In this document: positions 22,385 through 55,744 of the stretch, one piece after another | Position numbering within the stretch: position 1 is the stretch's first letter | Layout of the letters: the number at the start of each line of letters is the position of its first letter | Assembly (NCBI GenBank): GCA_963727825.1 | Contig: CAVSHO010000001.1 | Span: forward strand, 320,001-384,000 | Length of the DNA: 64,000 bases | Direction: 5' to 3' | Source of the DNA: Ignavibacteriota bacterium | Lineage (GTDB): Bacteria; Bacteroidota; Ignavibacteria; UBA10030 | Program-made: the position numbers and the translations under genes | The notes under the pieces: generated by a model | What the model was told of the DNA's origin: nothing | The model's input: the letters and a program-made list of their open reading frames with translations, nothing else | Databases searched by the model: none

Positions 22385-22562
22385 CATCATAATATATTCT
22401 TAATTCTCTAATAACATCAAATAGTTATTTTAAACAAGAATTTTCGTTTACAAAGATATTTTGTTCTGTTCGTGGTTTTTATCTAGGAGCGTTTGTTCCC
22501 TCAGAAACGAAGTGATAGAGAAATATGACAAGAAAGATTATGAATAACAGGAAGAATGTTTT

Positions 22563-23552
22563 GTGAGTATGATCCAGCAGTTTAATTTCTCGATAATCCG
22601 CATTGATTGGATGTTACTGCTTCTGCCGATGCCCTTCTTCATCGGTATGCTGCTGGACACACTCGCATGGAAGCAATTGCTTCCGCCACATCTTACCTTG
22701 CGGTTCAAATCATTATTTGGTGCACAAGTGGGAACGGAAGCAGTGCTCCTTTCCATTCCCGGCGGCTTTGCCATGACGGATCCGATCAAACTGTATATTC
22801 TTAAACAACGGTTTCACATTCCGCCTTTGGAAGTGTTTACTAGCCTTATTACACGTCATTGGCTGTTGGGAATTACACAACTTATTTTTATAAGCTCAGT
22901 TTGTCTGTTTGGATTTGTCGTTTCAGAACAACAATTACTGACTTCCTATATCCAGGATGGAACATTGTTCATCGCGATAAGCGTACTCATCACTGTGAGT
23001 CTCGGCCTTGGTTTTGTCGTCCGAAAACTCATGCGCGGTACACTTGCCCGTGATGTCTGGAAAATCCTATATAGGATGAATATCCGATTGTTGAGAGAGA
23101 AATTGAAAAGAGCAATAGGTTCTTTCAAAGAGGCCGACCGTTGCTTCGAAGCATTATGTAAAAGAAATGCGTCGAGTATTATATACGCAGCAATGTTTTA
23201 TCTTCTCTTGTGGACAATGGATGTGTGGGAAACAATGCTGGTTGCCCACGCAACAGGATTTCAAATTTCCATTATTAATGCTTTTCTCATTGAAGCAGTT
23301 CTTTCTGCTGTCCGTTTAAGCGTATTCTTCCTTCCTGGAGGTGTCGTAGTAAAAGAACTCGGATATTTTGCTCTCTTTACATCATTTAATCTTGGTATTT
23401 CTATGATTCGGATTTGTTCATTTGTTTTAATAAAGCGTCTGGTATCCATTCTTTGTATTCTTATCGGTTATCTCGTTCTCCTAAGACAAAGAATAGGCAC
23501 GATTTGGAAACATTCATCGATTCCTTATCAAACTATTATGGAAAGTCAATGA
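22563..23552 (+). CDS. Lysylphosphatidylglycerol-synthase TM / flippase-like membrane protein
   Basis: Multi-TM; LDTLAW, IPGG, FFLPGGVVVKELGY, LIKRLV. Confidence 0.75.
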   Translation: MSMIQQFNFSIIRIDWMLLLLPMPFFIGMLLDTLAWKQLLPPHLTLRFKSLFGAQVGTEAVLLSIPGGFAMTDPIKLYILKQRFHIPPLEVFTSLITRHWLLGITQLIFISSVCLFGFVVSEQQLLTSYIQDGTLFIAISVLITVSLGLGFVVRKLMRGTLARDVWKILYRMNIRLLREKLKRAIGSFKEADRCFEALCKRNASSIIYAAMFYLLLWTMDVWETMLVAHATGFQISIINAFLIEAVLSAVRLSVFFLPGGVVVKELGYFALFTSFNLGISMIRICSFVLIKRLVSILCILIGYLVLLRQRIGTIWKHSSIPYQTIMESQ

Positions 23553-24547
23553 AAAAAAAGATCTTACATATTGGGGGAACGTGGAACCAAATTACTCAAC
23601 TACACCAGATTGCAGATATGCTCCCCGAGTATGATCACTGTTTTTCTCCACAGTATTGTGATGGATTATTACGCGTTATTCAGAAATGGGGTTGGTTGGA
23701 TTTCACTGCTCCTGGACGTCCTTGGGTCAAGAGGATAAAAAAGTATATCCATGATCACCAACTCCAGGAAGACTGCGGCGGTGAATCAGGAGATTACGAT
23801 TTAACATTGATTACGACGGATTTAATTGTGCCAAAAAATATTTTGAATGGAAAAGTTGTTCTTGTGCAAGAAGGAATGACCGATCCCGAGAACTTTATGT
23901 TTCGGATGGTTAAATGGTTTCCATTCCTGCCTCATTGGATTGCCAGCAGTTCTGCTAACGGATTGAGCAATAAGTACAATGTACTCTGCGTTGCAAGTGA
24001 GGGTTATCGTGATTTGTTTATACAGAAGGGCGTGAAACGCGAAAATATTATTGTAACAGGTATTCCGAATTTTGATAATTGTAAAAAGTTTTATAACAAC
24101 ACATTTCCATTCCACAAATATGTTTTAGTGTGTACTTCGGATTCGCGCGAAACTTTCAAGTTTGAGAACAGAAAGAAATTCGTGCGACAGGCATATGAAT
24201 TTGCTGACGGCCGACAACTAATTTTCAAACTTCATCCCAATGAAAATATTAAACGTGCAACGAAAGAAATCAATACCTATGCACCAGGTGCTTTAGTGTT
24301 TACAAATGGGAATACTGAAGAAATGATCGCAAACTGTGATGTATTGATAACACAATATTCAAGCGTTGTGTACGTAGGAATTGCTTTGGCAAAAGAAGTG
24401 TACTCGTATTTTGACGTCCAGATGCTGCGAAGATTATTGCCACTGCAGCATGCTTCTGCAGCAAAAAACATTGCACAGGTATGTCGTCTGCTCCTCGAAA
24501 CAGAATCGGTGAGTGTTCCTGACTTATCTTTCGAGATAGTTTCTTGA
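23549..24547 (+). CDS. GT-B fold transferase (CMP-ulosonate transferase / TagF-like)
   Basis: ATGA overlap with the upstream gene; VTGIPNFD, FKLHPNE (HP motif), DVLITQYSSV. Confidence 0.6.
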   Translation: MKKKILHIGGTWNQITQLHQIADMLPEYDHCFSPQYCDGLLRVIQKWGWLDFTAPGRPWVKRIKKYIHDHQLQEDCGGESGDYDLTLITTDLIVPKNILNGKVVLVQEGMTDPENFMFRMVKWFPFLPHWIASSSANGLSNKYNVLCVASEGYRDLFIQKGVKRENIIVTGIPNFDNCKKFYNNTFPFHKYVLVCTSDSRETFKFENRKKFVRQAYEFADGRQLIFKLHPNENIKRATKEINTYAPGALVFTNGNTEEMIANCDVLITQYSSVVYVGIALAKEVYSYFDVQMLRRLLPLQHASAAKNIAQVCRLLLETESVSVPDLSFEIVS

Positions 24548-25356
24548 AAAAGCTGATTATTATACAGGCACGGCTTGGTTCTTCGCGGCTGCCGCGGAAA
24601 GTGATGATGCCATTGAAGGGAAGTCCTTTGCTTCTGCGTATGATTCAACGGGTAACAACTGCGAAAGTAGATTGCGACCTCATTGTTGCGACAACAACGA
24701 ATCCCGAAGATGATGCTATCAGGGATCTTTGTCAGAAGTTCAATATTCCTTGCTACAGTGGTCATCCGATCGATTTGTTAGATCGGCATTACCAAGCTGC
24801 TCTGCAAGAACATGCCGATGTGGTTATTAAGATTCCTTCAGATTGTCCTTTGATCGATCCACGGGTCATTGATAAAGTAGTCAAATACTATGAAGATCAT
24901 GCGGATCAGTATGATTTTGTGAGTAATCTTCATCCTGCAACTTATCCGGACGGGAATGATGTAGAAGTGATGCCATTCGATATTCTTGAAATTGCATGGA
25001 GAGAAGCTGCTCGTTTACTGGAACGTGAGCATACCACACCATTTATCTGGGAACATCCAGAACGATTTAGAATTGGAAATGTACTCTGGGAAACTGGTAA
25101 AAATTTTTCAATGACTCATCGCTGGACGATCGATTATCCTGAGGATTATATCTTCATCAAAAAAGTATATGATTACCTGTGTACGCCAGACTCCCCAGTA
25201 TTTTCAATCTATGATATCCTGGAATTACTGAAGCAGGAACCGATCCTGCCTCTTTTGAATGTAAAATATGCAGGTGTCAATTGGTACAGGCATCATTTAA
25301 ATGAATTAAAAACAGTGACATCGAAAGAAACAAAAATATTATTAGAAACGGCTTAG
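24544..25356 (+). CDS. SpsF-like cytidylyltransferase (CMP-ulosonate synthetase family)
   Basis: IIQARLGSSRLPRKV, SDCPLIDP, EREHTTP, RWTIDYPED. Confidence 0.85.
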   Translation: MKKLIIIQARLGSSRLPRKVMMPLKGSPLLLRMIQRVTTAKVDCDLIVATTTNPEDDAIRDLCQKFNIPCYSGHPIDLLDRHYQAALQEHADVVIKIPSDCPLIDPRVIDKVVKYYEDHADQYDFVSNLHPATYPDGNDVEVMPFDILEIAWREAARLLEREHTTPFIWEHPERFRIGNVLWETGKNFSMTHRWTIDYPEDYIFIKKVYDYLCTPDSPVFSIYDILELLKQEPILPLLNVKYAGVNWYRHHLNELKTVTSKETKILLETA

Positions 25357-25357
25357 C

Positions 25358-26215
25358 ATGTTAGATGAACAAACTCAAATTTTGAAAGATCGCGCGCTTC
25401 ATGTGCGTGAACATATTATCCGGATGGCAACTGACGGCGGTTGCTTTATAGGTGCATCCCTTTCATGTGTCGACCTTATTGTATTTATGTATTCCGACCT
25501 ATTAAATATTACACCGGATAGCATTGATAATCCTGAGCGTGATTATTTCTTTCTTTCTAAGGGGCATGGTGTCCCCGCGTTGTATGGAGCACTCGCCGAA
25601 TTAAACTTCATGCCAAAAGAACGGTTATTACAGCATTTAAAAATATCCAATTCCATGTATTGGCATCCGAATCGATCAATTCCAGGGGTTGAATTTCATT
25701 CGGGTTCGTTAGGACATTTGCTCGCAGTTGCAATCGGTGTTGCCTACGACATAAAGATTCGAGATGGAAACAATCGTGTCTTTGTACTTCTCGGTGATGG
25801 TGAATTGAACGAAGGTTCAATCTGGGAGGCATGCCTTTCTGCTGCAGCACACCAACTTGATAATCTTATCGTAGTCGTGGATCGGAACGAATTTCAGGCA
25901 AATGCACGGACAGAGGAACTTATTCCGCTCGAACCGATTGGAGCAAAATTTGGAGCATTTGGCTGGACCTGGAAAAGGATCGATGGTCATGACTTCAAAG
26001 CAATGGATGCTGTTTTTCATTGTCTTCCATTTCAACATGGGAAACCTAATGTTATTATCGCGAATACCGTACGCGGAAAAGGATTACCCAGCATAGAACA
26101 GCGGGCAGATAGATGGTTCGCCGACTTCACAAAACAGGAAATGGAAATGCTATTGCAAGAATTGCACAGTTCGGTTCCCACCGACATCTCCTCTGAAACT
26201 CTTATGGTTCAATAA
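25358..26215 (+). CDS. Transketolase N-terminal (ThDP-binding) subunit
   Basis: LSKGH, SGSLGH, GDGELNEGSIWEA, IDGHD, TVRGKG. Confidence 0.9.
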   Translation: MLDEQTQILKDRALHVREHIIRMATDGGCFIGASLSCVDLIVFMYSDLLNITPDSIDNPERDYFFLSKGHGVPALYGALAELNFMPKERLLQHLKISNSMYWHPNRSIPGVEFHSGSLGHLLAVAIGVAYDIKIRDGNNRVFVLLGDGELNEGSIWEACLSAAAHQLDNLIVVVDRNEFQANARTEELIPLEPIGAKFGAFGWTWKRIDGHDFKAMDAVFHCLPFQHGKPNVIIANTVRGKGLPSIEQRADRWFADFTKQEMEMLLQELHSSVPTDISSETLMVQ

Positions 26216-26216
26216 C

Positions 26217-27185
26217 ATGACATACGAAGAGAAGCTTGCACAATTATGTGCACAAAATTCCAAGTTGATGATCCTCACCGCTGAAAATCGCGCAGTCATT
26301 CGATCTCTTCCAACGGGACTCGGCAAACGATTCATAGATTTCGGCATTGCAGAGCAAACAATGGTTGGGGCAGCCGCCGGCCTAGCATTGCGTGGGAGAA
26401 TTCCAATAGTACACGCCTTGGCGACATTTCTTACCATGCGTGCATTTGAGTTTATCAGGACGGATGTAGGAATCGCCAAATTGCCTGTAAAATTAATTGG
26501 CGCCGTTCCAGGATTCCTCTCCGATGGCAATGGCCCGACTCATCAAGCGATTGAAGATATTGCACTAATGCATTCGATTCCTTCTATGCAGATATTCTGC
26601 CCATCTGATATTGATGAACTTGTCGATGGACTTGATCAGGTAATCCAAAGTAAATATCCATGTTATGTTCGCTTTAATGCTCGGTCCTCAGTGATTAAGC
26701 ATTTTACGCCATTTGTGTTCGGAGTATCCGAAACAATTACCGATGGATTTGATATAACAATATTGACTTATGGTTTTTTATTGGAACAAGCACTCATTGC
26801 CAGGGAACTCCTGGAAAAGTCGGGAGTGTCAGTTCGTCTTATCAATCTTCGCAGTCTTCATCCTATTGATGAATCCACAATTTTACGAGCCGCTCGAGAG
26901 ACACGGCTGCTCGTGACAGTTGAAGATCATTTTTTAAACGGTGGCCTGTTTAGTATTCTCAGCGAGATTCTTGTTAGAACTCAAACAATGGTCAATGTAT
27001 TGCCAATCGCACTGGAACAATGCTGGTTCTCACCTGGCATATTGCAGGATGTACTTGAACATGAAGGATATACAGGCAAGCAGCTTTCTCAACGAATTCT
27101 TACCAAGTTTACATCAATTCATCAGAATCACATAAAAGTTTCCAAGCATCATAAAGTTTCATTTTTCATACGATCAATTTGTTAA
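26217..27185 (+). CDS. Transketolase C-terminal subunit
   Basis: FGIAEQTMVG, RAFEFIR, GPTHQAIED, TVEDH. Confidence 0.9.
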   Translation: MTYEEKLAQLCAQNSKLMILTAENRAVIRSLPTGLGKRFIDFGIAEQTMVGAAAGLALRGRIPIVHALATFLTMRAFEFIRTDVGIAKLPVKLIGAVPGFLSDGNGPTHQAIEDIALMHSIPSMQIFCPSDIDELVDGLDQVIQSKYPCYVRFNARSSVIKHFTPFVFGVSETITDGFDITILTYGFLLEQALIARELLEKSGVSVRLINLRSLHPIDESTILRAARETRLLVTVEDHFLNGGLFSILSEILVRTQTMVNVLPIALEQCWFSPGILQDVLEHEGYTGKQLSQRILTKFTSIHQNHIKVSKHHKVSFFIRSIC

Positions 27186-27198
27186 AAAAGGGGTTGGT

Positions 27199-28548
27199 AT
27201 GGCAAACACTGTACAAAACAACGAACGATATCCGGATATTACTCAATCGAATAAATTGTATACTCGCGCCTTAACGCTTATTCCTTCACAAACTCAAACG
27301 CTTGCCAAAGGTCCGGGGCAATATATAAAAGGTGTCGCCCCTAAATATCTTGTGCGCGGGAAAGGTTCGCATGTGTGGGATGCAGACGGAAATGAGTTTA
27401 TCGATTATAATATGGGCATTGGTCCGCTATCCCTCGGATATTGCTACCCAGCTGTCGATGAAGCAATCAAGGAACAACTGCAGAACGGAATAACGTTTTC
27501 CATGATGCATCCGTTGGAAGTAGAGGTTGCAGAGTATATCCATGCACTTGTGCCGAGTGCAGAAATGGTTCGTTTCAGCAAGACCGGTGCCGACGTCACG
27601 AGTGCTGCCGTACGATTGGCGCGTGCCTTTACAGGAAGAAACAAAGTTCTTTGCTGTGGGTATCATGGCTGGCATGATTGGTATATAAGTGTCACGGATC
27701 GCGATAAAGGAATTCCGCGGGAAATAGCTAATCTCACACACACGTTCAATTACAACGACATCGATTCGGTTGTTGATTCGATCGACAGTGAGACTGCATG
27801 CGTTATCCTTGAGCCTATTGTGTTCGAAGAACCTAAGGACAACTTTCTTCATTTACTAAAGGGAATATGCGAACAGAATGGAACATTATTGATTTTCGAT
27901 GAAATGTGGACCGGCTTTCGCTTAGCGCTTGGTGGCGCGCAGGAATATTTCGGCGTGAAAGCGGACCTTATGACTTTTTCAAAAGCGATTGCTAACGGGA
28001 TGCCTCTTTCGGTTCTCACGGGGCGCGCCGATGTAATGCAGTTGCTTGAAAAGGATGTATTCTTCTTTACAACATTCGGTGGCGAGGCACTTTCTCTTGC
28101 AGCCGCAAAAGCGACAATTCTCGAAATGTTAGCTCACCAAGTTCCGCAGCGCATTGCCGCACAAGGCAAAAAGTTGCGCACAGGTCTCGATGCAATTCTG
28201 AAGGAAGAAGATATTTATTTTATAAATTGTCGTGGATTTGATTGCAGAACAATGCTTTCAATTGATTCATCTGTTAATAATCCGCTTGCATTAAAATCGT
28301 TTATTCAGCAAGAGTTCTTCAAGAGAGGCATTTTATGGAGTGGGTTTCATAACATCTCTTACTCTCATACCGACGAAGATATCGAATATACCCTAAAAGC
28401 ATATCGTGAAGTGCTAATATATGCAAAACGAGCTGTGCAGGATGATATTGTACTTAATTCTCTTTGCGGTGAAGTTGTGGAGCCGGTTTTTCGGAAGACC
28501 AGCAACTTTCACACTAAGCCAAAGATAGAGGTCGATGGGAAAAAATGA
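27199..28548 (+). CDS. Class III PLP aminotransferase (GSA-aminomutase-like, sugar-pathway type)
   Basis: WDADGNEFID, YHGWHDW, IFDEMWTGFR, FSKAIANGMP. Confidence 0.88.
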   Translation: MANTVQNNERYPDITQSNKLYTRALTLIPSQTQTLAKGPGQYIKGVAPKYLVRGKGSHVWDADGNEFIDYNMGIGPLSLGYCYPAVDEAIKEQLQNGITFSMMHPLEVEVAEYIHALVPSAEMVRFSKTGADVTSAAVRLARAFTGRNKVLCCGYHGWHDWYISVTDRDKGIPREIANLTHTFNYNDIDSVVDSIDSETACVILEPIVFEEPKDNFLHLLKGICEQNGTLLIFDEMWTGFRLALGGAQEYFGVKADLMTFSKAIANGMPLSVLTGRADVMQLLEKDVFFFTTFGGEALSLAAAKATILEMLAHQVPQRIAAQGKKLRTGLDAILKEEDIYFINCRGFDCRTMLSIDSSVNNPLALKSFIQQEFFKRGILWSGFHNISYSHTDEDIEYTLKAYREVLIYAKRAVQDDIVLNSLCGEVVEPVFRKTSNFHTKPKIEVDGKK

Positions 28549-29363
28549 ATTCACTTTTTTCGTTGACGGATAAGGTTGCGTTAGTAACTGGCGCATTAGG
28601 TTTGCTTGGCAGGCAGCATTGCGATGCGCTTGCTCAATCAGGTGCGAATATCGTCGTAACCGATGTCGATCAGGAGGGATGCAATGCTTTTGCCAGAGAT
28701 CTTGCCTCAGAATACCATATCACTGCTTTTGGATGTGCAATGGATATTACCAACGAGGAATCGCTGTGTAGCGTTCGTGATGCGATGCTGAAACAATTCG
28801 GCAGGCTTAATATTTTGGTCAACAATGCTGCGATCAATGATTTAGTTGAAAAACGTAGCAACAAAGTAGATTATTCAAGTTTTGAATTTTTTCCGCTCCA
28901 AGAATGGAAACAATCTCTAGAAGTGAATGTAACCGGGCTTTTCTTGTGCTGCAGAATATTTGGTGCGCTTATGGTTGAAAACGGGAGCGGTAGTATTATT
29001 AATATCGCATCAACCTATGGAATGGTCGCACCTAACCAGTCTATCTATGTTCGCCCCGATGGTACGCGATTAATGTTCAAATCACCAGCATATCCTACAA
29101 CGAAAGGTGCAGTGTTGGCTTTGACAAAATACTTGGCGGCATATTGGGGAAGCAAGGGTATTCGCGTGAATGCTCTTTCACCGGGTGGAGTCGAAAATGG
29201 GCAGGAAGAATTTTTTGTCGAAAATTATTCTGCGAAAACACCTCTGCAGCGCATGGCACATCCAAATGATTATAAAGGCGCAATAGTTTTTCTAGCGAGC
29301 GATGCATCCCAGTATATGACCGGTGCAAATTTAGTCGTGGATGGTGGTTGGACAATCTGGTAA
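28545..29363 (+). CDS. Short-chain dehydrogenase/reductase
   Basis: TGALGLLG, NNAA, YPTTK (YxxxK), IRVNALSPGG, VVDGGW. Confidence 0.9.
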   Translation: MNSLFSLTDKVALVTGALGLLGRQHCDALAQSGANIVVTDVDQEGCNAFARDLASEYHITAFGCAMDITNEESLCSVRDAMLKQFGRLNILVNNAAINDLVEKRSNKVDYSSFEFFPLQEWKQSLEVNVTGLFLCCRIFGALMVENGSGSIINIASTYGMVAPNQSIYVRPDGTRLMFKSPAYPTTKGAVLALTKYLAAYWGSKGIRVNALSPGGVENGQEEFFVENYSAKTPLQRMAHPNDYKGAIVFLASDASQYMTGANLVVDGGWTIW

Positions 29364-29373
29364 TGAAAAGTTA

Positions 29374-29982
29374 ATGGGAAAAAACCCGATAAAACTTATA
29401 GCAACTACCAATAAAAGCGGATTAAAAAGACGCGCAGATCGAATACGGCTGTTATTAACCGATTGCGATGGCGTACTAACGGATAATGGTGTGTACTATT
29501 CTGATCATGGCGAGGAGATGAAACGATTCTCTATTCGTGACGGTATGGGAGTCGCTCGGTTGCGAAGTGCAGGAATTGAGATAGGGATCATTTCAGGAGA
29601 GGCGTCACGGAGTTTGCAGCAACGTGCCGAGAAACTATGTATTACTCATTTATATCTTGGTGTGAAAGATAAACTTCAGCAGGTAATATCTATTGCCAAA
29701 CATCATAACATTCCCCTGGAGGCCGTTGCATATATCGGAGATGATGTAAATGATATCAATGTTATGTCTAAGCTGTATGAAATAAGCTTGACTGCTGTTC
29801 CCAGTGATGCTTTACCTTCAGTACATCGCTTGGCACATTACGTATGTACATGCAATGGAGGACATGGTGCTTTCCGCGAATTTTCAGATTGGATTCTTGA
29901 TCTCCGCGGCACAGAAAAACCTGTCAATGAAACATATGAAAAAATAGATAATTCACTTATTCTTTCAAAGGTAAAAGTATGA
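29374..29982 (+). CDS. KdsC-family HAD phosphatase (ulosonate-phosphate phosphatase)
   Basis: LTDCDGVLTD, FSIRDGMG, YIGDDVND, GGHGAFRE. Confidence 0.88.
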   Translation: MGKNPIKLIATTNKSGLKRRADRIRLLLTDCDGVLTDNGVYYSDHGEEMKRFSIRDGMGVARLRSAGIEIGIISGEASRSLQQRAEKLCITHLYLGVKDKLQQVISIAKHHNIPLEAVAYIGDDVNDINVMSKLYEISLTAVPSDALPSVHRLAHYVCTCNGGHGAFREFSDWILDLRGTEKPVNETYEKIDNSLILSKVKV

Positions 29983-30908
29983 ATTCCGATGTTTTACGAG
30001 TTGGGCACAAATTTATAGGCGCTAATCAGCCTGTATATGTCATAGCCGAAATCGGCATCAATCACAATGGTTCATTAGAATTAGCAAAGAAGCTTATTGA
30101 TGCTGCATTTCTTGCTGGATGTGATGCGGTTAAATTTCAAAAACGAACCCCCGTAAAATGCGTTCCAATAGATCAATGGAATATCGAGCGCGATACACCA
30201 TGGGGACGCATGACATATATCAACTACCGCAATAAGATGGAATTTGGGAAGGAACAATTTGACGAGATCGATCAATACTGTCGTGTACGCGGAATTGCAT
30301 GGTTTGCATCTTGCTGGGATGAAGACTCCGTCGATTTTATGGAACAATATGCTGTCCCGTGTTACAAAGCACCTTCTGCCTCGCTTACAGACATAGAACT
30401 TCTTCGCAAGATGAAATCTACAGGCAAACCGTTAATCATCTCTACCGGTATGTCGACAATGGATGAAATTGAAACAGTCTTTGATTGTATAGGTCTCGAT
30501 AATCTTTTAATCGCACACACAACATCTACCTATCCTTGTCCGCTCCATGAAATTAATCTCCGGATGATTCAAACACTACAGGAAAAGTATATTAATAATC
30601 CTATCGGTTACTCAGGCCATGAAACGGGATTATCGCCTACATGGGCGGCTGTTGCACTGGGCGCAACGTTTGTCGAACGACATATCACACTTGATCGAGC
30701 GATGTGGGGAAGTGATCAGGCGGCTTCCGTGGAAATAGGCGGGCTTATACGACTTGTTCAAAATATTCGTGACATTGAGCGTGCATTTGGCGATGGTATC
30801 AAGCGGGTTTATCCGAGCGAGATTGGCCAGCGGAACAAATTACGTCGTATTAATTCTCTGGATCCGGTTTCCATATCAACTGAACGTTCCATGGTTTGTT
30901 CGCCATGA
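29979..30908 (+). CDS. NeuB-family ulosonic acid synthase (short form, no C-terminal AFP-like domain)
   Basis: IAEIGINHNG, AVKFQKR, ISTGMST, GYSGHE, VERHITLDR, GSDQAAS. Confidence 0.9.
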   Translation: MNSDVLRVGHKFIGANQPVYVIAEIGINHNGSLELAKKLIDAAFLAGCDAVKFQKRTPVKCVPIDQWNIERDTPWGRMTYINYRNKMEFGKEQFDEIDQYCRVRGIAWFASCWDEDSVDFMEQYAVPCYKAPSASLTDIELLRKMKSTGKPLIISTGMSTMDEIETVFDCIGLDNLLIAHTTSTYPCPLHEINLRMIQTLQEKYINNPIGYSGHETGLSPTWAAVALGATFVERHITLDRAMWGSDQAASVEIGGLIRLVQNIRDIERAFGDGIKRVYPSEIGQRNKLRRINSLDPVSISTERSMVCSP

Positions 30909-31046: not shown

Positions 31047-31080
31047 ATAATCCTTTGTTAACAGAAAGATAACAGAAAGA
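31047..31080 (+). promoter_or_regulatory. Pho-box-like array upstream of the sixA operon
   Basis: Perfect tandem 11-mer TAACAGAAAGA x2 (31059-31080), giving TTAACA-N5-ATAACA; TATATTG at about 31123. Confidence 0.7.
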
Positions 31081-31172
31081 CAGGGAATGTTCTCTTACTT
31101 TATTGTGAGTAAAAAAAAACTGTATATTGTGTCTATAAATATGATCGCATGATATTTTATTAAGGATTATTG

Positions 31173-31667
31173 ATGCTGGTTTATATTCTTCGCCATGGAA
31201 TTGCAGCGCCACGCGGTGTCAAACCATACCCAAATGATGATCGTCCTCTCACAGAAGAAGGTATTGAGAAGATGTTAAAAGGCGCAATGGGAATTGTGCA
31301 TCTGGTAGATGATGTAGATATTATTTTAACGAGCCCAATGATACGGGCTGCCGAAACTGCTAAGATTGTCGCAAAGGCATTACACATTGAATCAAAACTC
31401 CAGATTTGTAATGAGCTAAGTCCGGGGAGTTCATTAAAGAATCTTCTTACGTACCTTGCAAAATTTAAAAAATTGAGAGGTATCATGATTGTCGGTCATG
31501 AACCGGATCTTGCTTATTTCGCTTCTGCATTGCTGGGTAAGAAAACACCAGTTATTGAATTTAAAAAGGGTTCACTTTGCTGCATAGAAGTGACCACAAT
31601 ACCATCGAAAAAAGATGGGAAATTACTCTGGCTTGTTACGCCAAAACAATTACGATTGATGGCATAA
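31173..31667 (+). CDS. sixA: Phosphohistidine phosphatase SixA
   Basis: LRHGIA, DRPLTEEG, TSPMIRAAETA, VGHEP, FKKG. Confidence 0.9.
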   Translation: MLVYILRHGIAAPRGVKPYPNDDRPLTEEGIEKMLKGAMGIVHLVDDVDIILTSPMIRAAETAKIVAKALHIESKLQICNELSPGSSLKNLLTYLAKFKKLRGIMIVGHEPDLAYFASALLGKKTPVIEFKKGSLCCIEVTTIPSKKDGKLLWLVTPKQLRLMA

Positions 31668-31682
31668 AAGAAAGAAGGAAAA

Positions 31683-32396
31683 ATGTCCCGCGTTTTTGAA
31701 CAAGATCACCAGCTACCCGGCCGATTAATTATTGTCGAAGGGATAGATGGATCCGGCAAGTCAACACAATTGCAATTGCTGCATAAGTGGCTCCTCAATT
31801 CGAAATATCGAACATTTTTTACAGAATGGAATTCATCAGCACTGGTAAAAGAAACAATTAAGTATGGGAAAAAGAAAAATCTTCTAACACCAACGACGTT
31901 TTCCATTTTGCATGCAACAGACTTTGCCGATCGTTTGATGCACTTGATCATTCCTCCGATGAAAGCAGGAATGATTGTCTGTGCAGATCGGTATATCTAT
32001 ACCGCTTTTGCCCGCGATGTTGTGCGTGGCGTCCATCCGGAATGGGTGCGCAATTTGTATGGCTTTGCAGTTAAGCCGGATATCGGATTTTATTTTAAAG
32101 TACCGATAGAAGTTTCCCTCAATCGTATTTTAACAGGCAGAGTGGAATTGAAATTTCATGAAGCCGGAATGGATATGGGCCTCAGCGAAGATCCGAAGGA
32201 AAGTTTTCGGTTGTTTCAATCCAAGATACTTGAAGAATATGACAGGATCGCAGCGGAATTCGGTTTGAGTGTTATCGATGCGACCCTTTCTATTCAAAAA
32301 CAACAGACAATGGTTCGCGAGATCATCAGAGAGAAGTTGAAAGATTATGAGCCCACGCCATTCCTAAGAAAGAAGGAAAATGTCTATGTTGCATAA
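31683..32396 (+). CDS. Thymidylate-kinase-fold P-loop protein A
   Basis: EGIDGSGKST, ADRYIYT, EAGMD. Confidence 0.85.
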   Translation: MSRVFEQDHQLPGRLIIVEGIDGSGKSTQLQLLHKWLLNSKYRTFFTEWNSSALVKETIKYGKKKNLLTPTTFSILHATDFADRLMHLIIPPMKAGMIVCADRYIYTAFARDVVRGVHPEWVRNLYGFAVKPDIGFYFKVPIEVSLNRILTGRVELKFHEAGMDMGLSEDPKESFRLFQSKILEEYDRIAAEFGLSVIDATLSIQKQQTMVREIIREKLKDYEPTPFLRKKENVYVA

Positions 32397-33147
32397 AAAA
32401 AATGTGTTTTATGGTACCGGGCTGCCTTATGTTGATGCTCATGAAATGAAGGGAAAACTCATTGTCATTGAAGGCACAGATGGAGTAGGGCGATCAACCC
32501 AAATTGAATCATTAAAGAAATGGCTCGAGGTTAAAGGATATGGAGTTGCGACAACCGGATGGACTCGCTCGCCGCTGATGGGCAATGCAATTGATGAAGC
32601 GAAATCGGGCCACACACTCAACGTAAACACCTTTAGTCTATTATATGCTGCAGATTTTGCCGATCGCCTAGAGCATGAAGTGATTCCTGCATTGAAGGCA
32701 GGGTTTATTGTTCTCGCAGACCGCTACATTTATACAGCGTTCGCCCGGTCGATAGTCCGTGGTGCAGACTCACAGTGGATTCGAAAAGTCTTTGGTTTTG
32801 CACTTGTGCCTGACGCAGTATTTTATATGCGCGTGCAAATTGAAGATTTGATTCCCCGTGTAATCAACAGCAAGACATTGAATAGACGCTATTGGGAAGA
32901 AGACTTAGGCGAAGGAATGGATTACTGGGAATCAGGTATGGATCTGCATCTCGGAGAGGATTTTTACGACAGCTTTATGGAGTACCAGAAACGTATTCTT
33001 CATGAATTTCACAAGATGTCCAAAGAATTCAGATTTCAGGTTGTGGATGCGTCACGTTCGTTTGAAGAAATCAATAGGGAATTAAAACAGGGGATATTAC
33101 TCATCCTAAATCATGAAAGATCCGAAGAAAAATCTAGCCGCAATTGA
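32380..33147 (+). CDS. Thymidylate-kinase-fold protein B (P-loop Lys replaced by Arg)
   Basis: EGTDGVGRST, ADRYIYT, ESGMD. Confidence 0.85.
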   Translation: MSMLHKKNVFYGTGLPYVDAHEMKGKLIVIEGTDGVGRSTQIESLKKWLEVKGYGVATTGWTRSPLMGNAIDEAKSGHTLNVNTFSLLYAADFADRLEHEVIPALKAGFIVLADRYIYTAFARSIVRGADSQWIRKVFGFALVPDAVFYMRVQIEDLIPRVINSKTLNRRYWEEDLGEGMDYWESGMDLHLGEDFYDSFMEYQKRILHEFHKMSKEFRFQVVDASRSFEEINRELKQGILLILNHERSEEKSSRN

Positions 33148-34669
33148 TATCGGAACAAATTCCTTCCATCTCATTGTAGCCGAAGTCAATACTGAGACGG
33201 GGCGGTTTAAAATTCTTGGAAAAGAAAAAGAAGTTGTCCGTTTGGGGTCTGGTTCGACGGATATGAAATATCTTTCCGAGCTTGCTATGAACCGTGGTAT
33301 TGAAGTCCTAAAACGATTTCGTATTGTTGCGGATGCTTTTCAAGCAGATGTGCGGGCAATTGCCACGAGCGCTGTACGCGAAGCGATCAACAAACAGGAT
33401 TTTGTTCGCCGCGTGAAGATAGAAACCGGAATTCGGATAGAAATTGTCTCCGGTTTCGAAGAGGCACGGTTAATTTATTTAGGCGTGTTGCAGGCGCTGC
33501 CTGTGTTTCATAATAAAATACTACTTGTTGATATCGGTGGAGGCAGCACCGAGTTTCTCATCGGGGAAAAACGGTCTATTTACTTCAGCAATAGCCTAAA
33601 ACTTGGAGCAGTCCGGTTAACAGAGCGATTTTTAGAATCAGGGAACCTCAGCCGGAAAACTGTCGAAGAATGCAGAAAATATGTGCGCGGATTTCTGGTT
33701 CCGATTATTCGCGATGTAAAAAAACAACAGTTCGAGGTTTGCATCGGAACTTCTGGTACTATCAACAACCTGGCAAATATTATACGAACAAATCGTGGTG
33801 AGGCAATTGAGCTTCCATTAAACAATGTTTCTTTCTCACGGGCAGAATTACTTGAAACTGTTAAGAATATACTCACGTTTATAACGCCCATCGAAAGAAT
33901 GGAAATTGAAGGATTAGATCCCGACCGTGCTGATATTATGCCTGCCGGAGCTATCATTCTTGAACAAATTTTTCTGGCACTGGGTATAAAAATATTAACC
34001 GTTTCGGAATATTCATTACGCGAAGGAATTCTTCTCGACAGCATAGAAAAAATGCACACGAAGAAGCCGTCTGTGTATCTCCACAATCTTCGACGGAGCA
34101 GTGTTCTTCATTTGGCCGAGATTTATCATTATGAAAAAAAACATGCGCATCACGTGAACGCCTTGGCGTTGCAACTGTTCGATCAGACCAAATATCTCCA
34201 TAAACTCAATGGACAGGCGCGTGAATATCTTGAAGCAGCGGCAATTCTCCATGAAGTAGGATCATTCGTTTCGCATACACAGCATCACCGGCATTCCTAT
34301 TACCTGATTAGGAACGCAGAACTGTTTGGCTATACAGAAAACGAGAAAGAAATTATCGCGAATGTTGCACGCTATCATCGTAAGAGCCATCCTAAGATAA
34401 AACATGAGGGATACAATCTTCTTTCAAACGAAGATAAGATATTAGTATCTAAACTTGCCTCCCTTTTGCGTATTGCTGATGGTCTCGACCGTTCGCATGC
34501 CTCACGAATCCAACAATTGAAGGTACGCAAGATTAGTCGAAAACTTCGTGTCCGGGTTTATCATGCATCAAAAGTCAAGCCGGATTTAGAATTGTGGGGT
34601 GCGAACCGGAAGAAGCAATTGTTTGAAATTGTTTTTCGAAAAAGAATTGAATTTGTAGCAGTATCTTAA
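33113..34669 (+). CDS. ppx: Exopolyphosphatase Ppx/GppA (long form with HD-like C-terminal domain)
   Basis: AIDIGTNSFH, ATSAVREA, EEARL, DIGGGSTE, LREG, ARYHRKS, LRIADGLD. Confidence 0.95.
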   Translation: MKDPKKNLAAIDIGTNSFHLIVAEVNTETGRFKILGKEKEVVRLGSGSTDMKYLSELAMNRGIEVLKRFRIVADAFQADVRAIATSAVREAINKQDFVRRVKIETGIRIEIVSGFEEARLIYLGVLQALPVFHNKILLVDIGGGSTEFLIGEKRSIYFSNSLKLGAVRLTERFLESGNLSRKTVEECRKYVRGFLVPIIRDVKKQQFEVCIGTSGTINNLANIIRTNRGEAIELPLNNVSFSRAELLETVKNILTFITPIERMEIEGLDPDRADIMPAGAIILEQIFLALGIKILTVSEYSLREGILLDSIEKMHTKKPSVYLHNLRRSSVLHLAEIYHYEKKHAHHVNALALQLFDQTKYLHKLNGQAREYLEAAAILHEVGSFVSHTQHHRHSYYLIRNAELFGYTENEKEIIANVARYHRKSHPKIKHEGYNLLSNEDKILVSKLASLLRIADGLDRSHASRIQQLKVRKISRKLRVRVYHASKVKPDLELWGANRKKQLFEIVFRKRIEFVAVS

Positions 34670-34807: not shown

Positions 34808-35299
34808 CTATGAAATAGATTGCAAGAAGCGCTGTCTAAACTGCTCCTCTTCCCATTGGGAAAATTTCTTACAGAGAGAAAGAAAGTTTTCATGCCGTTC
34901 CTTTTCAAACCTTTGTATTAAAATGCGGAGCCCTGTTGTCGGTATCTTCAGTGCACGATCATTGATGCCTGCATTGAAATGGCGAACTTGCCGGACATGT
35001 TGTCTGAGGATTGGAAGATTGATATCGAGATCATGTATACGGCCTAAGATACCGAGGATCTGTTTGACGGAATTGAGGCAATCCTCAAATTGTGAACCAT
35101 ACGCCGGCAGATACATTTCCATCGCATATCGCACTCGCTTTCCACGCAAACGCAGAGCATGAAGGGTTTCCTGATGATGTTCGTTCAAGATCACAGGATC
35201 GATTCTTGTCAAGAAGGAATCTAATATGGGTGGGAGAATCTCACGGCCGTTGCTGCGTAATGTCAATTTATTCTTCGAGGAGGTGGCTCTCTTTTTCAT
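34808..35299 (-). CDS. CHAD domain, C-terminal half
   Basis: LHALRLRGKRVRYAME, LGRIHDLD; its ATG overlaps the upstream TGA (ATGA). Confidence 0.75.
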   Translation of the reverse strand: MKKRATSSKNKLTLRSNGREILPPILDSFLTRIDPVILNEHHQETLHALRLRGKRVRYAMEMYLPAYGSQFEDCLNSVKQILGILGRIHDLDINLPILRQHVRQVRHFNAGINDRALKIPTTGLRILIQRFEKERHENFLSLCKKFSQWEEEQFRQRFLQSIS

Positions 35300-35772
35300 C
35301 GAAGGGATCCCCAAATGAATTCTTCGAACCGCCGCTTAAACCCGGTGCGTATGAGTTTTCGGATTTCTGCTTTCATGACTTTACGGTGTAACTCGCGTAT
35401 AGTTCGCTCCTGTGCCACAAGCCATTGTAAAGCAATCTTATCTTTGGTTGGGATGTCTTTGATAAGATTTTCCAATTCTTCTTGCAAAACATCGATTTCC
35501 CGTACCGGTCCAAAAGCATTAATAAGTTTCTCAATCTCTTCTAACTGATAACGCAATTGTTTTTTAGGAAAGAAATTTTTATGAATCTTCAATGTAGCAC
35601 GAAGGCGACGGGCTGAAACTCGCATGTTATGGAGCGCCTCTGGATCAGTCCCTTTAACTGTCTCAGATTCGTATGAAAGCATTTCCTGCATCCATCCTAG
35701 TAGCGTTCTTCGAAGCGAAACTTTGAGTGGTTCGTTCGGATCAAGATCAACAATTTCCAATGGTCTTGCCAT
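35296..35772 (-). CDS. CHAD domain, N-terminal half
   Basis: DPEALHNMRVSARRLRATL, FGPVREIDV. Confidence 0.8.
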   Translation of the reverse strand: MARPLEIVDLDPNEPLKVSLRRTLLGWMQEMLSYESETVKGTDPEALHNMRVSARRLRATLKIHKNFFPKKQLRYQLEEIEKLINAFGPVREIDVLQEELENLIKDIPTKDKIALQWLVAQERTIRELHRKVMKAEIRKLIRTGFKRRFEEFIWGSLR

Positions 35773-35974
35773 AACAAGAGTAATGTAGATAAAAGATTGC
35801 AAAAGATAAAATGGAGAACTGGTCAAGTCACAAAATCAAAGAACTCATGTACGATGAAATCAAATTTGATAAATGAATACAATGTATTTATCTTGTGAAG
35901 TATTAAGTTGGACTATCGTTAGCATTAATTAACAAGGACAGTTTTTACATGAAGAACGGGAGAAGAGAACAACA

Positions 35975-52325: not shown

Positions 52326-53147
52326 TATATTCGTTCCGGGAATGCGGTGAATATGAACGGTAAGGGGAAGTTCCATCTTTGCCTTAGCATAGAGAGATTC
52401 ATTTTCGCCGACAAGGATTGCTAAACCATCGGGGTCGCACAGCTGCAATAACGGGATGTCTATATCGCTATCGGTGGCAACAATCATGGGCATACAATCG
52501 CCGCTCAATAGACGGTATTGGGCAACTTTTCCATCGCCCACCGGAATCGGGTTCAATATTTGATTCGTGATTATTCCGTTTACGATTTTTGGCTTAATAC
52601 CGGCAATATTATTTATAGGAATATCAAACAACATAGAAGCGGCCATTTTCGCTGAAACATCGTTGCTTGCCGAAATAATAAAAATCGTATACTCCCACTG
52701 ACGCAACAGGTGTATCACCTCAAGCATGATCTGATTTGCCTTTGGCACAGGGACTTCCATTCCTTCACACCTGATCGTATCGGAACTCGAAAGTAAAACT
52801 CGTTTGGTTGTTCTGATAAGAAAGTCCAAAGAAAGGCCATTCAATGCGCGCACCGCTTCAATGTAAGCAGTTGATGCATCTTCTTTTACCATCTGCTGAT
52901 ATTCGGTCCATGAGAGCGAGAGAGGAAAGTCTTCAGAGAGTAATTGTGCAAAAATGGCATTACCAATATCACCGACAAGCAATGTATTATCCAGATCAAA
53001 TACCGCGGTTCTGCTTTTCCCACCCAGATGAGATTCACCAAACCGCTGCTCAATATCTAGGAGGCACTCCAATATGTTCGATCGAAAAACCATTTCTATC
53101 GAGTACTTTGACATAAAGCCAGGGTCGATCAATTCGTAGATTCTCAT
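52293..53147 (-). CDS. HAD-superfamily phosphatase
   Basis: VFDLDNTLLVGDIG (DxD), ISAS, GK, DSDID. Confidence 0.85.
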   Translation of the reverse strand: MRIYELIDPGFMSKYSIEMVFRSNILECLLDIEQRFGESHLGGKSRTAVFDLDNTLLVGDIGNAIFAQLLSEDFPLSLSWTEYQQMVKEDASTAYIEAVRALNGLSLDFLIRTTKRVLLSSSDTIRCEGMEVPVPKANQIMLEVIHLLRQWEYTIFIISASNDVSAKMAASMLFDIPINNIAGIKPKIVNGIITNQILNPIPVGDGKVAQYRLLSGDCMPMIVATDSDIDIPLLQLCDPDGLAILVGENESLYAKAKMELPLTVHIHRIPGTNILSLQEQYCVA

Positions 53148-54124
53148 TGCGCTGTGAATGATCGAAGAGGTTTAGCTGCGAATGCAGGAATCGTAAGTGG
53201 TTTATGATGTTGATGAAGTGCAACTGTAACGTTTGAGATCTGGTAAGGAATCGGCAGCTGGCGAATCTTGATATTACAATACCCATCAGTATATTGCAAC
53301 ATATTATACTTCAAGAACTTCACAGGGTCGTCACAGACTGCGCCTGCTCCATTGGCAAAAAGAATTCCGTTACGATCATATATCTCATTTCGATGAATAT
53401 GTCCATGCAATACATATCGGACATTGAACGATTGGAAAAGGCGGATAATTCTTTTTCTTTTTTTCATCCGCATGGTGTTCGACTCTATTTTTGTCCAAAG
53501 TCTGCCTCCTTCATAGTCTGATTGAATGAAATCGTTAAAGTGATGATGGATAACAATAATGTTGGTACGATCAGCTAAAATGCCGAAGGAGGTCATTTTT
53601 TCTAAAGCATCAATTTGCTGATCGTCCAACATTCCATTCGTGCCCAATGGATTTTGCCTAAAAGACCATGGAGGAATTGAATTCAAGCCGATGATGTTGA
53701 ATGGCCCTACTATTTTGATAAAAGGAAACAGACTTGTTTCACTCAATCTTGTGACATTCTGGAAAGTCTCAGCAAATGCATTCTGGAACAATGCTATATG
53801 CTGTGTATAGTCGATACTACGAATATGCTGCGGAAAACTCAGCACATCTACAGCGCGATGTGGTCCGCCGAAAATATCATGATTCCCAGGCACGATAGTC
53901 AATTTGCTGCTATCCAGCAATTGATGATTTAAAAGTATTTCCCGTGCAAGATAGTAATCATCTTCATCAGCCGTGCTGACAATATCACCGGAGACAATTA
54001 TATGATCTGCCCCTTCGTTCAACATAGAACGTAAGAGCATTTTAAATGATTTGATATGCTCACGATAATGCTGCCGGCTCAAATGCGGATCTGAAATATG
54101 TGCTATTTGAAACATATCTTTCAT
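53144..54124 (-). CDS. CpdA/Icc-like metallophosphoesterase
   Basis: HISDPH, SGDI, PGNHD, HHH, LHGHIH. Confidence 0.88.
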   Translation of the reverse strand: MKDMFQIAHISDPHLSRQHYREHIKSFKMLLRSMLNEGADHIIVSGDIVSTADEDDYYLAREILLNHQLLDSSKLTIVPGNHDIFGGPHRAVDVLSFPQHIRSIDYTQHIALFQNAFAETFQNVTRLSETSLFPFIKIVGPFNIIGLNSIPPWSFRQNPLGTNGMLDDQQIDALEKMTSFGILADRTNIIVIHHHFNDFIQSDYEGGRLWTKIESNTMRMKKRKRIIRLFQSFNVRYVLHGHIHRNEIYDRNGILFANGAGAVCDDPVKFLKYNMLQYTDGYCNIKIRQLPIPYQISNVTVALHQHHKPLTIPAFAAKPLRSFTAQ

Positions 54125-54132
54125 AAGAATAT

Positions 54133-55281
54133 TTACGCTGCCTTGTGTAATAATCGGCGTTGTTTTACCTGTTGTATAACATCTTCGTACGTAATAAAGA
54201 GACGGTTCAGAATGGATTCCCACCGGTATTCCTGAGCACGTCGATGTGCCTGTTCGCCCATCGTCCGCCTATAATTCGGGTGATCGAGCAGCCATTCCAC
54301 TTTTTGTGCAAGGTTCACACCGTCCAGTGGTTTAGCAAGGAGTCCAGATGTTCCATCTTCAATGATCTCAGTTGCGCCCCCCATTTTTGCTGCAACTGGG
54401 GTCAATCCGGAAGCCATTGCTTCTAACGTTACCAATCCGAAGGTCTCCGTTGTTGAGGGGAAGACAAAGATGTCGGCAGAGGCGAAACTCTCTGCAAGCG
54501 TGACACCCGTCTGGTATCCCAGGAAGTGTGCGCCCGGCATCATCTGCTCAAATTCGGTCCGAGCGTGACCTTCCCCCACGATCACCATTTGAAAATCATT
54601 TCGCTTTGTTTTTAATTGTTGATATGCATCAGCTAGGACTCGCAAGTCTTTTTCCCATACTAACCTGCTTACAAATAATACGATGGGTTTAGAACCGCCG
54701 CCGAATTGTATTCGCCATACGTCATTTCGACGCTCAGGCGTGAAGAGCCCCGTGTCGACACCATTTGGAAGATATTGTAAACGTTGAATATTGTTTTCTG
54801 TCAATTCATTTAAAATAGGTCTTGTAGGGACGAGAGTTAGATCTACGTTGTTATACAGATTTCGGGTTATTCGCCATACAAGGTCTTCAAGCTTTGTCAG
54901 GTTATAATAACGAGGATATGCCGGGAAGTGTGTATGGTATGTTGCAACCACAGGCACGTCAAAATGTTTTGCATATTTCACCGCACCAAATCCGAGTGTG
55001 CAGGGACTATTGATATGAATGATGTCCGGCCTGAAATTATTTAGTATTTTGGCGAAAGATTGATATCCTGGCAAAGCCATCCTGTATGCTTTTTGGAGCG
55101 GGATGACAACGGAGGGAACCTTATACATCGGAATGAGCTGCTCTGATAGTTCAGGCAAAATAGAAGTGATGGCAATTACCTCATGATTTCTGGCAAGTGC
55201 GCCATCAATCATTTTATATACAACACGCGTGACTCCATCTTGTCCGACTTTTAAGTTCGCATTGAAATACGCTATTCGCAT
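54133..55281 (-). CDS. GT4 glycosyltransferase, diacylglycerol glycosyltransferase (Agt/MgtA-like)
   Basis: DGV, ATYHTHFPAY, NGVD, VSRLVWEKD, FPSTTETFGLVTLEAMASG. Confidence 0.85.
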   Translation of the reverse strand: MRIAYFNANLKVGQDGVTRVVYKMIDGALARNHEVIAITSILPELSEQLIPMYKVPSVVIPLQKAYRMALPGYQSFAKILNNFRPDIIHINSPCTLGFGAVKYAKHFDVPVVATYHTHFPAYPRYYNLTKLEDLVWRITRNLYNNVDLTLVPTRPILNELTENNIQRLQYLPNGVDTGLFTPERRNDVWRIQFGGGSKPIVLFVSRLVWEKDLRVLADAYQQLKTKRNDFQMVIVGEGHARTEFEQMMPGAHFLGYQTGVTLAESFASADIFVFPSTTETFGLVTLEAMASGLTPVAAKMGGATEIIEDGTSGLLAKPLDGVNLAQKVEWLLDHPNYRRTMGEQAHRRAQEYRWESILNRLFITYEDVIQQVKQRRLLHKAA

Positions 55282-55320: not shown

Positions 55321-55359
55321 TATTACTGGAAAATGATGGTGTGGTTATTGATTTGTTAA
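55321..55359 (-). promoter_or_regulatory. Pho-box-like array upstream of the GT4 operon
   Basis: Minus strand TTAACA, ATAACC, ATCATT, GTAATA at an exact 11-bp period, followed by TATATTG. Confidence 0.7.
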
Positions 55360-55657: not shown

Positions 55658-55744
55658 CAAAATTGAGTCTTTTCTACGAATCCTTGAAAGAGAGAAACCT
55701 AACCCCTATATTAAATGCACAAATCTGAAAGATTGAAGTACCTT

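Follow-up and report, generated by a model that had tools for sequence, protein, structure and literature searches.

Within a 64,000-nucleotide stretch of an Ignavibacteriota bacterium genome (contig CAVSHO010000001.1; the whole stretch is called the window here), we analyzed a locus in which two overlapping genes for thymidylate-kinase-like proteins, Tmk-like A and Tmk-like B, lie between sixA and ppx, with two CHAD genes alongside (Table 1). The original prediction, made from the letters of this DNA, had described the order sixA-A-B-ppx, a P-loop motif in each Tmk-like protein, the shared motifs DRYIYT and E(A/S)GMD, the CHAD neighbors and a perfect 11-bp tandem repeat ahead of the operon, and we found each of these in the open reading frames (ORFs) or the DNA in front of them. 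The thymidylate-kinase fold that it had assigned to both proteins agrees with a Pfam scan, in which A and B matched PF02223 (Thymidylate_kin) with 78.3 and 79.8 bits, respectively. A and B are 42% identical (E 1e-61), with HEAGMD in A corresponding to WESGMD in B, and the start of the B gene lies within the end of the A gene, an overlap of 17 nt; the second ATG of B, at position 32386, is its likely start, and its database homologs are 253 amino acids long. The Ppx protein scored 282.8 bits against TIGR03706, below the cut-off of 307. The division of the CHAD domain into an N-half and a C-half ORF recurs in relatives (L007, L009, L010, L018, L020, L025, L028, L029, L032, L035 and L039) and is therefore probably not an assembly error; in three other relatives (L008, L012 and L038) the CHAD protein is a single ORF.

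Table 1. Positions (within the window) of the genes and sites discussed in the text.
Feature	Position	Strand	Remarks
pstS	2356-3240	-	TIGR02136 263.8 bits (cut-off 206.6)
Second TAAC-N7-TAAC site, TTTGTTAACAATTTCTTAACA	3321-3335	-	96 nt upstream of pstS, beside phoU
phoU	3424-4086	-	TIGR02135 190.3 bits (cut-off 130.25)
Perfect 11-bp tandem repeat, TAACAGAAAGA x2	31059-31080	+	111 nt upstream of sixA start
sixA (phosphohistidine phosphatase family)	31170-31667	+	first gene of operon; TIGR00249 101.6 bits (cut-off 74.5)
Tmk-like A	31683-32396	+	237 aa; GSGKST, DRYIYT, TEWNSS; assigned as cPPK3 ortholog
Tmk-like B	32380-33147	+	255 aa; GVGRST, DRYIYT; assigned as rPPK3 ortholog
ppx, exopolyphosphatase, Ppx/GppA family with HD-like domain III	33113-34669	+	PF02541 234.1 bits; PF21447 121.1 bits
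CHAD protein, C-terminal half of domain	34808-35314	-	PF05235 profile positions 167-223, 50.7 bits
CHAD protein, N-terminal half of domain	35296-35826	-	PF05235 profile positions 8-132, 79 bits
GT4 glycosyltransferase + metallophosphoesterase operon	53144-55281	-	divergent from PhoB/PhoR-like gene pair
Third TAAC-N7-TAAC site	55344-55358	-	63 nt upstream of GT4 glycosyltransferase/metallophosphoesterase operon
PhoB-like response regulator	55715-56434	+	Response_reg + Trans_reg_C (Pfam)
PhoR-like histidine kinase	56487-57878	+	HAMP, HisKA, HATPase_c (Pfam)

Paired genes of this kind are known from Sulfolobus acidocaldarius, where both had been annotated as thymidylate kinase and together encode PPK3, a heteromeric polyphosphate (polyP) kinase (Hofmann et al., JBC 2026; PMC12995831; bioRxiv 10.1101/2024.08.28.610084). 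Saci_2019 provides catalysis (cPPK3), and Saci_2020 is its regulatory partner (rPPK3), which is inactive alone; the two assemble as an alpha2-beta2 complex whose reaction is reversible, with polyP + ADP -> ATP as the preferred direction, and they are encoded in an operon of the order sixA-ppx-dTMPK-dTMPK-CHAD, where dTMPK stands for dTMP kinase (PMC12995831). A full-text literature search on the PPK3 family found nothing beyond Hofmann et al. The kinase pair that the original prediction had called 'unrecognised' thus belongs to a family already published as PPK3, and its central proposal, that a catalytic and a regulatory protein of the Tmk fold form a heteromer that transfers phosphate between polyP and nucleotides, has been demonstrated biochemically for the orthologous Sulfolobus pair (PMC12995831).

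The relationship of A and B to this family was evident from comparisons of both sequence and predicted structure. The best solved relative of both proteins is S. tokodaii ST1543 (STK_15430; PDB 2plr, 4nzy, 4rzx and 5h70), which was deposited as a dTMP kinase and has been called a cPPK3 homolog (PMC12995831). Its chain (2plr/5h70) matched A with 197.8 bits (E 1.9e-57), compared with 52.8 bits for the best canonical thymidylate kinase (Tmk), and matched B with 146.3 bits, and no canonical Tmk structure exceeded 55.8 bits against either protein. ST1543 shares its P-loop, DRY and TEWNSS motifs with A but crystallized as a homomer, that is, as the catalytic subunit alone, and neither a c-r complex nor an r-subunit was represented among the PDB sequence matches of A and B. 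An AlphaFold 2 model of B (mean pLDDT 88.3) likewise resembled 2plr most closely (TM 0.89), with canonical Tmks ranking behind it. Confidence was low (pLDDT 51-58) for a lid insertion of 12 residues that is peculiar to B.

To place the two proteins we sampled 301 archaeal genomes from the phylum of a Thermoproteota locus, of which 19 had a match at E <= 1e-25, and based the Sulfolobales comparison on the nine loci in which the c-type ORF alone passed that threshold. In a 77-row tree, for which the genome's own Tmk (branch length 6.5) served as the root, a 38-row clade united A with the Sulfolobales cPPK3 rows (SH-aLRT 96) and a 36-row clade united B with the Sulfolobales rPPK3 rows (SH-aLRT 99), and the two halves of the tree mirrored one another in topology. 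The nine Sulfolobales r-type ORFs scored 83-104 bits with B versus 48-82 bits with A, and the c-type ORF of one locus (L126) was identical to the 2plr sequence as aligned. All nine loci had the gene order sixA-ppx-c-r, with sixA opening the operon. One protein with a DGY motif, P0258, was considered as an archaeal rPPK3 and rejected, its source being a Bryobacteraceae metagenome-assembled genome (MAG) and not Sulfolobus. By these sequence comparisons, A is the cPPK3 ortholog and B the rPPK3 ortholog.

With canonical thymidylate kinases (TIGR00041/PF02223), A and B share the fold, the P-loop, the DRX motif and the lid, but they part from them at the dTMP site, where the genome's own Tmk reads LREPGG, A reads TEWNSS and B reads TGWTRS; the true Tmk reaches 169 bits with the family profile, whereas A and B score 78-87 bits. 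A TEWNSS-type motif was present in 76/76 A-type ORFs of the wider survey described below. Against the dTMP-kinase equivalog TIGR00041 (cut-off 83.25 bits), A fell just below the threshold (82.9 bits) and B just above it (86.5 bits), with the dTMP-site motif lacking in both. The original prediction had approached the pair through the fold that PPK2 enzymes share with thymidylate kinases, which turned out not to be the true relationship: neither A nor B had a PF03976 (PPK2) match at E <= 0.01 in the Pfam scan, and PPK3 has been placed within the dTMPK superfamily, with an origin from dTMP kinases independent of PPK2 (PMC12995831), so we rejected descent of the pair from PPK2. A parallel in design nevertheless exists with the two-domain PPK2 enzymes (class II, e.g. 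P. aeruginosa PA3455), polyP-dependent nucleotide kinases in which an active P-loop module is joined to an inactive paralogous one (PMC12995831); those enzymes are of another family, the modules are separate polypeptides here, and the ADP and polyP sites are swapped in PPK3 (PMC12995831).

The rest of the genome also resembles that of a PPK3 host. The assembly that holds the window (G000) comprises 3.12 Mb in 14 contigs and is 96.8% complete with 6.55% contamination. It carries a separate canonical tmk on contig C10 (G000:C10:247150-247719; PF02223, 169.4 bits), a gene for which the original prediction had suggested looking, and a fourth, weak Thymidylate_kin match (26.7 bits) lies at G000:C7:97668-98138 (L004). 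The lack of ppk1 and ppk2, which had been noted for the window, extends to the entire assembly, in which a profile search gave no match to PPK1 (PF02503) or PPK2 (PF03976); neither was found in the same-genus operon carriers G073 (99% complete) and G470 (99%, one contig). In view of these negative results, this organism probably has PPK3 as its sole polyphosphate kinase.

An anti-correlation of the pair with ppk across genomes, which had also been envisaged, was borne out weakly and for ppk1 alone. Among 151 genomes sampled from the window's order, which are related to one another so that the counts are descriptive only, PPK1 was present in 47 and PPK2 in 59. PPK1 occurred in 6/38 PPK3-bearing genomes compared with 41/113 genomes without PPK3, a weak tendency in the expected direction, but PPK2 occurred alongside PPK3 without restriction (20/38 compared with 39/113); the corresponding Fisher p values (0.025 and 0.056) ignore kinship and are not readable as tests. 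We therefore rejected a strict anti-correlation for PPK2 and regard it as weak for PPK1. Neither enzyme was found in 13 of the 38 PPK3-bearing genomes, G000 included, and none of PPK1, PPK2 and PPK3 in 69/151 genomes, including 6/9 of the window's genus, in which 3/9 genomes carry the operon.

Beyond this genome, the arrangement of the locus recurs too regularly to be a product of chance. Of 401 genomes sampled from the phylum, eight had strong matches (E <= 1e-80), and all eight belong to the window's order. The order A-B-ppx held in 28/28 complete loci of that order, and sixA directly preceded A in 27 of them, the exception being cut at the contig start; CHAD ORFs lay mostly upstream. A scan of one genome per species returned at least 600 stretches, of which 558 encoded relatives (canonical Tmks included in the count), and our neighborhood counts rest on the best 80 of these loci, 76 of which were of the PPK3 type. 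In these 76 loci, which come from many phyla, a B-type ORF followed A directly in 73; it lay beyond ppx in L053, and none was seen in the available DNA of L077 and L101, the latter near a contig end. A Ppx-like ORF lay near the pair in 45/76. The bacterial sources of these PPK3-type loci were Bacteroidota, Nitrospirota, Acidobacteriota, Planctomycetota, Verrucomicrobiota, Chloroflexota, Armatimonadota, Binatota, Thermodesulfobacteriota, Sumerlaeota, Eisenbacteria, Melainabacteria, 'Zipacnadia' and Desulfuromonadales, and the archaeal sources were Nitrososphaerota, Thermoplasmata, Methanoliparum, Marine Group II and one Thermoproteota MAG.

The published account describes the bacterial occurrence of PPK3 as 'a few scattered bacteria', and its Data S1 gives PPK3 = 0 in 11/11 Ignavibacteriota rows and 2/2 Kapabacteria rows (PMC12995831). 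With 14 or more groups of bacteria and several of archaea as its sources, the A-B pair is far broader in distribution than that description. Protein databases were consistent with a large family: for A and B each, all 8000 of the 8000 scored candidates passed E <= 1e-10, so that homologs number at least 8000, and at the 50% cluster level 323 representatives passed E <= 1e-30. The best 120 homologs were at least 77% identical to A and at least 71% identical to B, and the MAG labels of the best ones were Bacteroidota, Kapabacteria, Ignavibacteria and Acidobacteriota. In some proteins the two subunits are naturally fused, either as c-r (P0241 and P0071) or as c-r-HD (P0251, P0256 and P0257), which provides an independent hint that A and B act as one unit.

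Having these loci at hand, we could ask what sets the regulatory subunit apart. Inactivity of rPPK3 has been attributed to the lost arginine of its DRX motif (PMC12995831), and the nine Sulfolobales r-types indeed had DGY, with Gly in place of the DRX Arg, in 9/9 cases, while their Walker-A residue was Arg in five and Lys in four. Outside the Sulfolobales the pattern was different. Among the B-type ORFs of 71 loci of other species, the Walker-A position was Arg in 68/69 readable P-loops (Lys once, in L095) and the DRX arginine was present in 71/71; in the window's order, GVGR and DRY were each found in 29/29 B-type ORFs. The A-type ORFs all had the Walker-A Lys and all had the DRX arginine. 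In a joint alignment the Walker-A residue was Lys in 67/67 A-type and Arg in 58/60 B-type sequences, and K56, K64, R153, K157 and K/R181 were basic mainly in the A-type, the position of K157 being Asp in 88% of B. Based on the Walker-A and DRX counts, the Lys-to-Arg change at Walker-A is, at the level of sequence, a widespread mark of the regulatory subunit, and the Arg-to-Gly change in DRX is special to Sulfolobales. Loss of the DRX arginine therefore describes Sulfolobales and not the family as a whole, and its presence in B is no bar to membership in PPK3. The A-biased basic residues fit the published statement that polyP-cleft residues are conserved in c-type but not r-type subunits, the two residue sets being unmatched because the paper marks its set only in figures (PMC12995831). 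In the main text of that paper the word 'lysine' occurs only in a reference title, and legend S14 of its supplement names Saci and STK sequences only (PMC12995831). In one locus from the window's genus (L017; G470:C1), the B gene (at ~746-1508 of the locus) is split by a TGA into ORFs of 106 and 142 amino acids, with A, sixA and ppx intact; B could be a pseudogene there, or the TGA could be a recoded stop or an error of sequencing.

Taken together, the sixA-A-B-ppx locus is very probably a bacterial PPK3 operon with A as the catalytic subunit and B as the regulatory one, and the assignment of the locus to PPK3, an enzyme interpretation already in print, is supported by its clade placement, its adjacent c and r paralogs, its ppx, sixA and CHAD neighbors, the separate dTMPK and the unconserved dTMP-site residues. 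By orthology with S. acidocaldarius PPK3 (SaPPK3), A and B would form a hetero-oligomer (alpha2-beta2 in Sulfolobus) that would reversibly move the terminal phosphate between polyP and ADP/ATP, with polyP + ADP -> ATP preferred, and B would raise the activity of A; Ppx would hydrolyze polyP to phosphate, and the CHAD proteins would bind polyP granules. The likeness to SaPPK3 encompasses adjacent dTMPK-fold paralogs within the cPPK3 and rPPK3 clades, an operon shared with sixA and ppx, CHAD beside it, a canonical dTMPK elsewhere, no PPK1 or PPK2 and no conservation of dTMP-site residues. The two differ in gene order (sixA-c-r-ppx with CHAD on the opposite strand here, sixA-ppx-c-r in Sulfolobales), in the 12-residue lid insertion of B, in the Walker-A Arg and DRX Arg of B (among Sulfolobales r-subunits the latter is Gly in 9/9, the former Arg in 5/9) and in the host, a mesophile-type bacterium of the Bacteroidota group as opposed to a thermoacidophilic archaeon.

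Several points weigh against this assignment of roles. The predicted activity of the bacterial pair rests on orthology at ~50% identity; the completeness and contamination of the assembly leave the absence of PPK1 and PPK2 unproven; and the loss of the DRX arginine that marks the published rPPK3 is not found in B, which has DRYIYT. Because B keeps this arginine (R115), unlike the inactive rPPK3 of the paper, its inactivity is presumptive. Both subunits might thus be catalytically competent, with B carrying out a second reaction, such as AMP -> ADP or a reaction on another nucleotide, which would make the pair a two-activity complex instead of a catalytic subunit with a dead regulatory one. B retains, besides the DRX Arg, the residues matching R111, R115 and R148 of A and the E-S-G-x-D motif, and the conservation of GxGR[ST] (68/69 P-loops) and DR[YF] (71/71) across many phyla argues for selection on the nucleotide site; moreover, the missing DRX Arg to which inactivity is ascribed in Sulfolobus is a feature of the nine Sulfolobales loci only. 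We nonetheless consider two competent subunits improbable. A Walker-A Lys-to-Arg change generally cripples phosphoryl transfer in P-loop enzymes, and B also lacks several basic residues conserved in A, with Asp at the K157 position in 88% of B-type sequences. The orthologous Sulfolobus subunit, finally, is inactive alone (PMC12995831, including the legend of Fig. S7).

Still less probable, to the point of being very unlikely, is that both proteins are ordinary kinases of nucleotide monophosphates, dTMP or a related one, that merely happen to lie beside polyP genes and have no action on polyP. Such a reading would accord with Pfam and NCBIfam, which file both proteins under thymidylate kinase (B even above the TIGR00041 cut-off), and with the deposition of the S. 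tokodaii ortholog in the PDB as a dTMP kinase, but it is at odds with the 169-bit canonical tmk elsewhere in the genome, with the replacement of the LREPGG dTMP-site motif in A and B, with the linkage of a Ppx-like ORF to the pair in 45/76 loci and with the division of labor in S. acidocaldarius, where Saci_0893 functions as a dTMP kinase and Saci_2019 as a PPK (PMC12995831). Returning to the reading of B as the regulatory subunit of a PPK3, we infer from its Walker-A Arg, its lack of several basic residues found in A and its retained DRX arginine that it would be a nucleotide-binding but catalytically impaired pseudokinase.

We next consider the 11-bp repeat in front of sixA, for which the spacing of its TAAC units provides a searchable pattern, TAAC-N7-TAAC. 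The 64-kb window contains only three such sites, all of them in promoters of phosphate-related operons, and those of pstS and sixA have in common both TTTGTTAACA-N5-(T/A)TAACA and a downstream GAATGTT; the neighboring operon at 22389-30908 has no such site ahead of it. To assess conservation we scanned 260 nt upstream of sixA in ten loci of the window's order in which sixA comes first. TAAC-N7-TAAC was found in 5/10. Spacings for nine further periods (7-10 and 12-16 bp) gave 0/10 in every case, and shuffled controls (n=1000) had a mean of 0.076 with none reaching 5. The third site lies in the intergenic region beside the PhoB/PhoR-like genes, ahead of an operon whose GT4 glycosyltransferase and metallophosphoesterase presumably resemble the PlcP/Agt pair of phosphate-sparing lipid remodeling; the best NCBIfam match of the glycosyltransferase was a glucosaminyl-phosphatidylglycerol synthase model, far below its cut-off. 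In addition, the ORF that stops just ahead of sixA in locus L033 ends in a winged-helix sequence of the OmpR/PhoB type, which links the operon physically to a regulator of this type. Outside the window, a TAACA-N6-TAACA site lies 24 nt upstream of the gene for a receiver-domain protein (G000:C1:410268, minus strand).

From the positions of the sites and their conservation across relatives, and not from genome-wide enrichment, the 11-bp repeat appears likely to be a Pho-box-type site and a candidate target of the PhoB-like regulator encoded in the window, in which case the operon would join pstS in a phosphate-starvation regulon. Direct repeats spaced at 11 bp are present upstream of pstS and of other phosphate-related genes, as in a Pho regulon, and binding at them is a prediction. 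The E. coli Pho box is similar in that its direct repeats also recur every 11 bp ahead of pstS and other phosphate operons, with a PhoB/PhoR-type system alongside, but its core is of the CTGTCAT type, in contrast to TAAC(A) here. Other observations speak against a Pho box. The PhoB-like regulator has PhoB models as its two best NCBIfam matches but stays below the equivalog cut-off of each (241 bits against 270 for NF053854, 224 bits against 296 for TIGR02154), so that it may not be the true PhoB; TAACA-N6-TAACA occurs five times genome-wide, with no enrichment of the 11-bp period (3-12 sites at other periods); and L017, the nearest relative to share this upstream region, has a degenerate second unit of the repeat. 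The repeat might accordingly be a chance duplication or the site of another, for instance operon-specific, regulator, given that it is perfect in this genome only and that five of the ten sixA-first loci lack the motif. We regard this alternative as somewhat doubtful, since only the 11-bp period recurs upstream of sixA, all three sites of the window fall in phosphate-related promoters, the pstS and sixA sites share sequence beyond the TAAC units, and an OmpR/PhoB-type regulator gene abuts sixA in L033.

We suggest tentatively, and as a rather unlikely extension of the PPK3 assignment, that the regulatory subunit of most PPK3s is a conserved nucleotide-sensing pseudokinase rather than a dead scaffold, in an operon switched on through the Pho box. 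The GxGR[ST]T P-loop, together with the intact DRX and lid arginines, would bind ATP or ADP, and B would set the direction of A, toward polyP synthesis or toward ATP regeneration, according to energy charge; on this view the Sulfolobus form, having lost the DRX arginine, would be a derived exception. In a bolder form of the same idea, B would itself catalyze a second phosphotransfer step.

The original prediction had also expected the pair to be mis-annotated as dTMP kinase, and the names of database homologs fit this expectation: among the best ones listed for A and B, all named homologs are called dTMP kinase or thymidylate kinase. Because B lies above the TIGR00041 cut-off, automatic pipelines will name a regulatory PPK3 subunit 'dTMP kinase', and the naming of PPK3 subunits in this way amounts to a systematic error of annotation, with consequences for metagenomic inference of phosphorus cycling, as in enhanced phosphorus removal, soils and sediments. 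PPK3 fills the gap of a 'missing polyphosphate kinase' in organisms that make polyP or have polyP genes without PPK1 or PPK2. The locus extends this solution to a bacterial lineage of the Bacteroidota group, for whose Ignavibacteriota and Kapabacteria rows Data S1 lists no PPK3 (PMC12995831). As far as the available text of that paper goes, the breadth of the family, the signature of the r-subunit and the candidate Pho box are new (PMC12995831); the Walker-A Lys-to-Arg change is a simple mark by which to recognize the regulatory subunit, and the candidate Pho box would provide a regulatory link to phosphate supply.

Some relatives of A and B occur within larger proteins. One family of the window's order has a fused protein of ~650-710 amino acids that consists of two Tmk-like modules with a Ppx/GppA HD-like domain III behind them (G197:C53:20897-22084, and in G446, G452, G467, G495, G413 and G434; proteins P0251, P0256 and P0257), and four genomes have only this fused form, without a separate A-B pair. 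A cPPK3-like module, recognized by GSGKS and DR[YWH], is also found in the long proteins P0277 (EukProt, Ancoracysta twista), P0302 and P0316. The protist protein P0277 combines it with an SPX domain, an APH-like domain and DUF2252, and other long proteins combine it with an MFS transporter. In eukaryotes, phosphate and polyP homeostasis is controlled by SPX domains, so the SPX fusion may point to PPK3-like enzymes there. Three further proteins of 968-2575 amino acids (P0301, P0342 and P0323) carry a PPK3-like module beside an InPase domain, and once beside ART-PolyVal, and resemble the polyvalent proteins of mobile elements.

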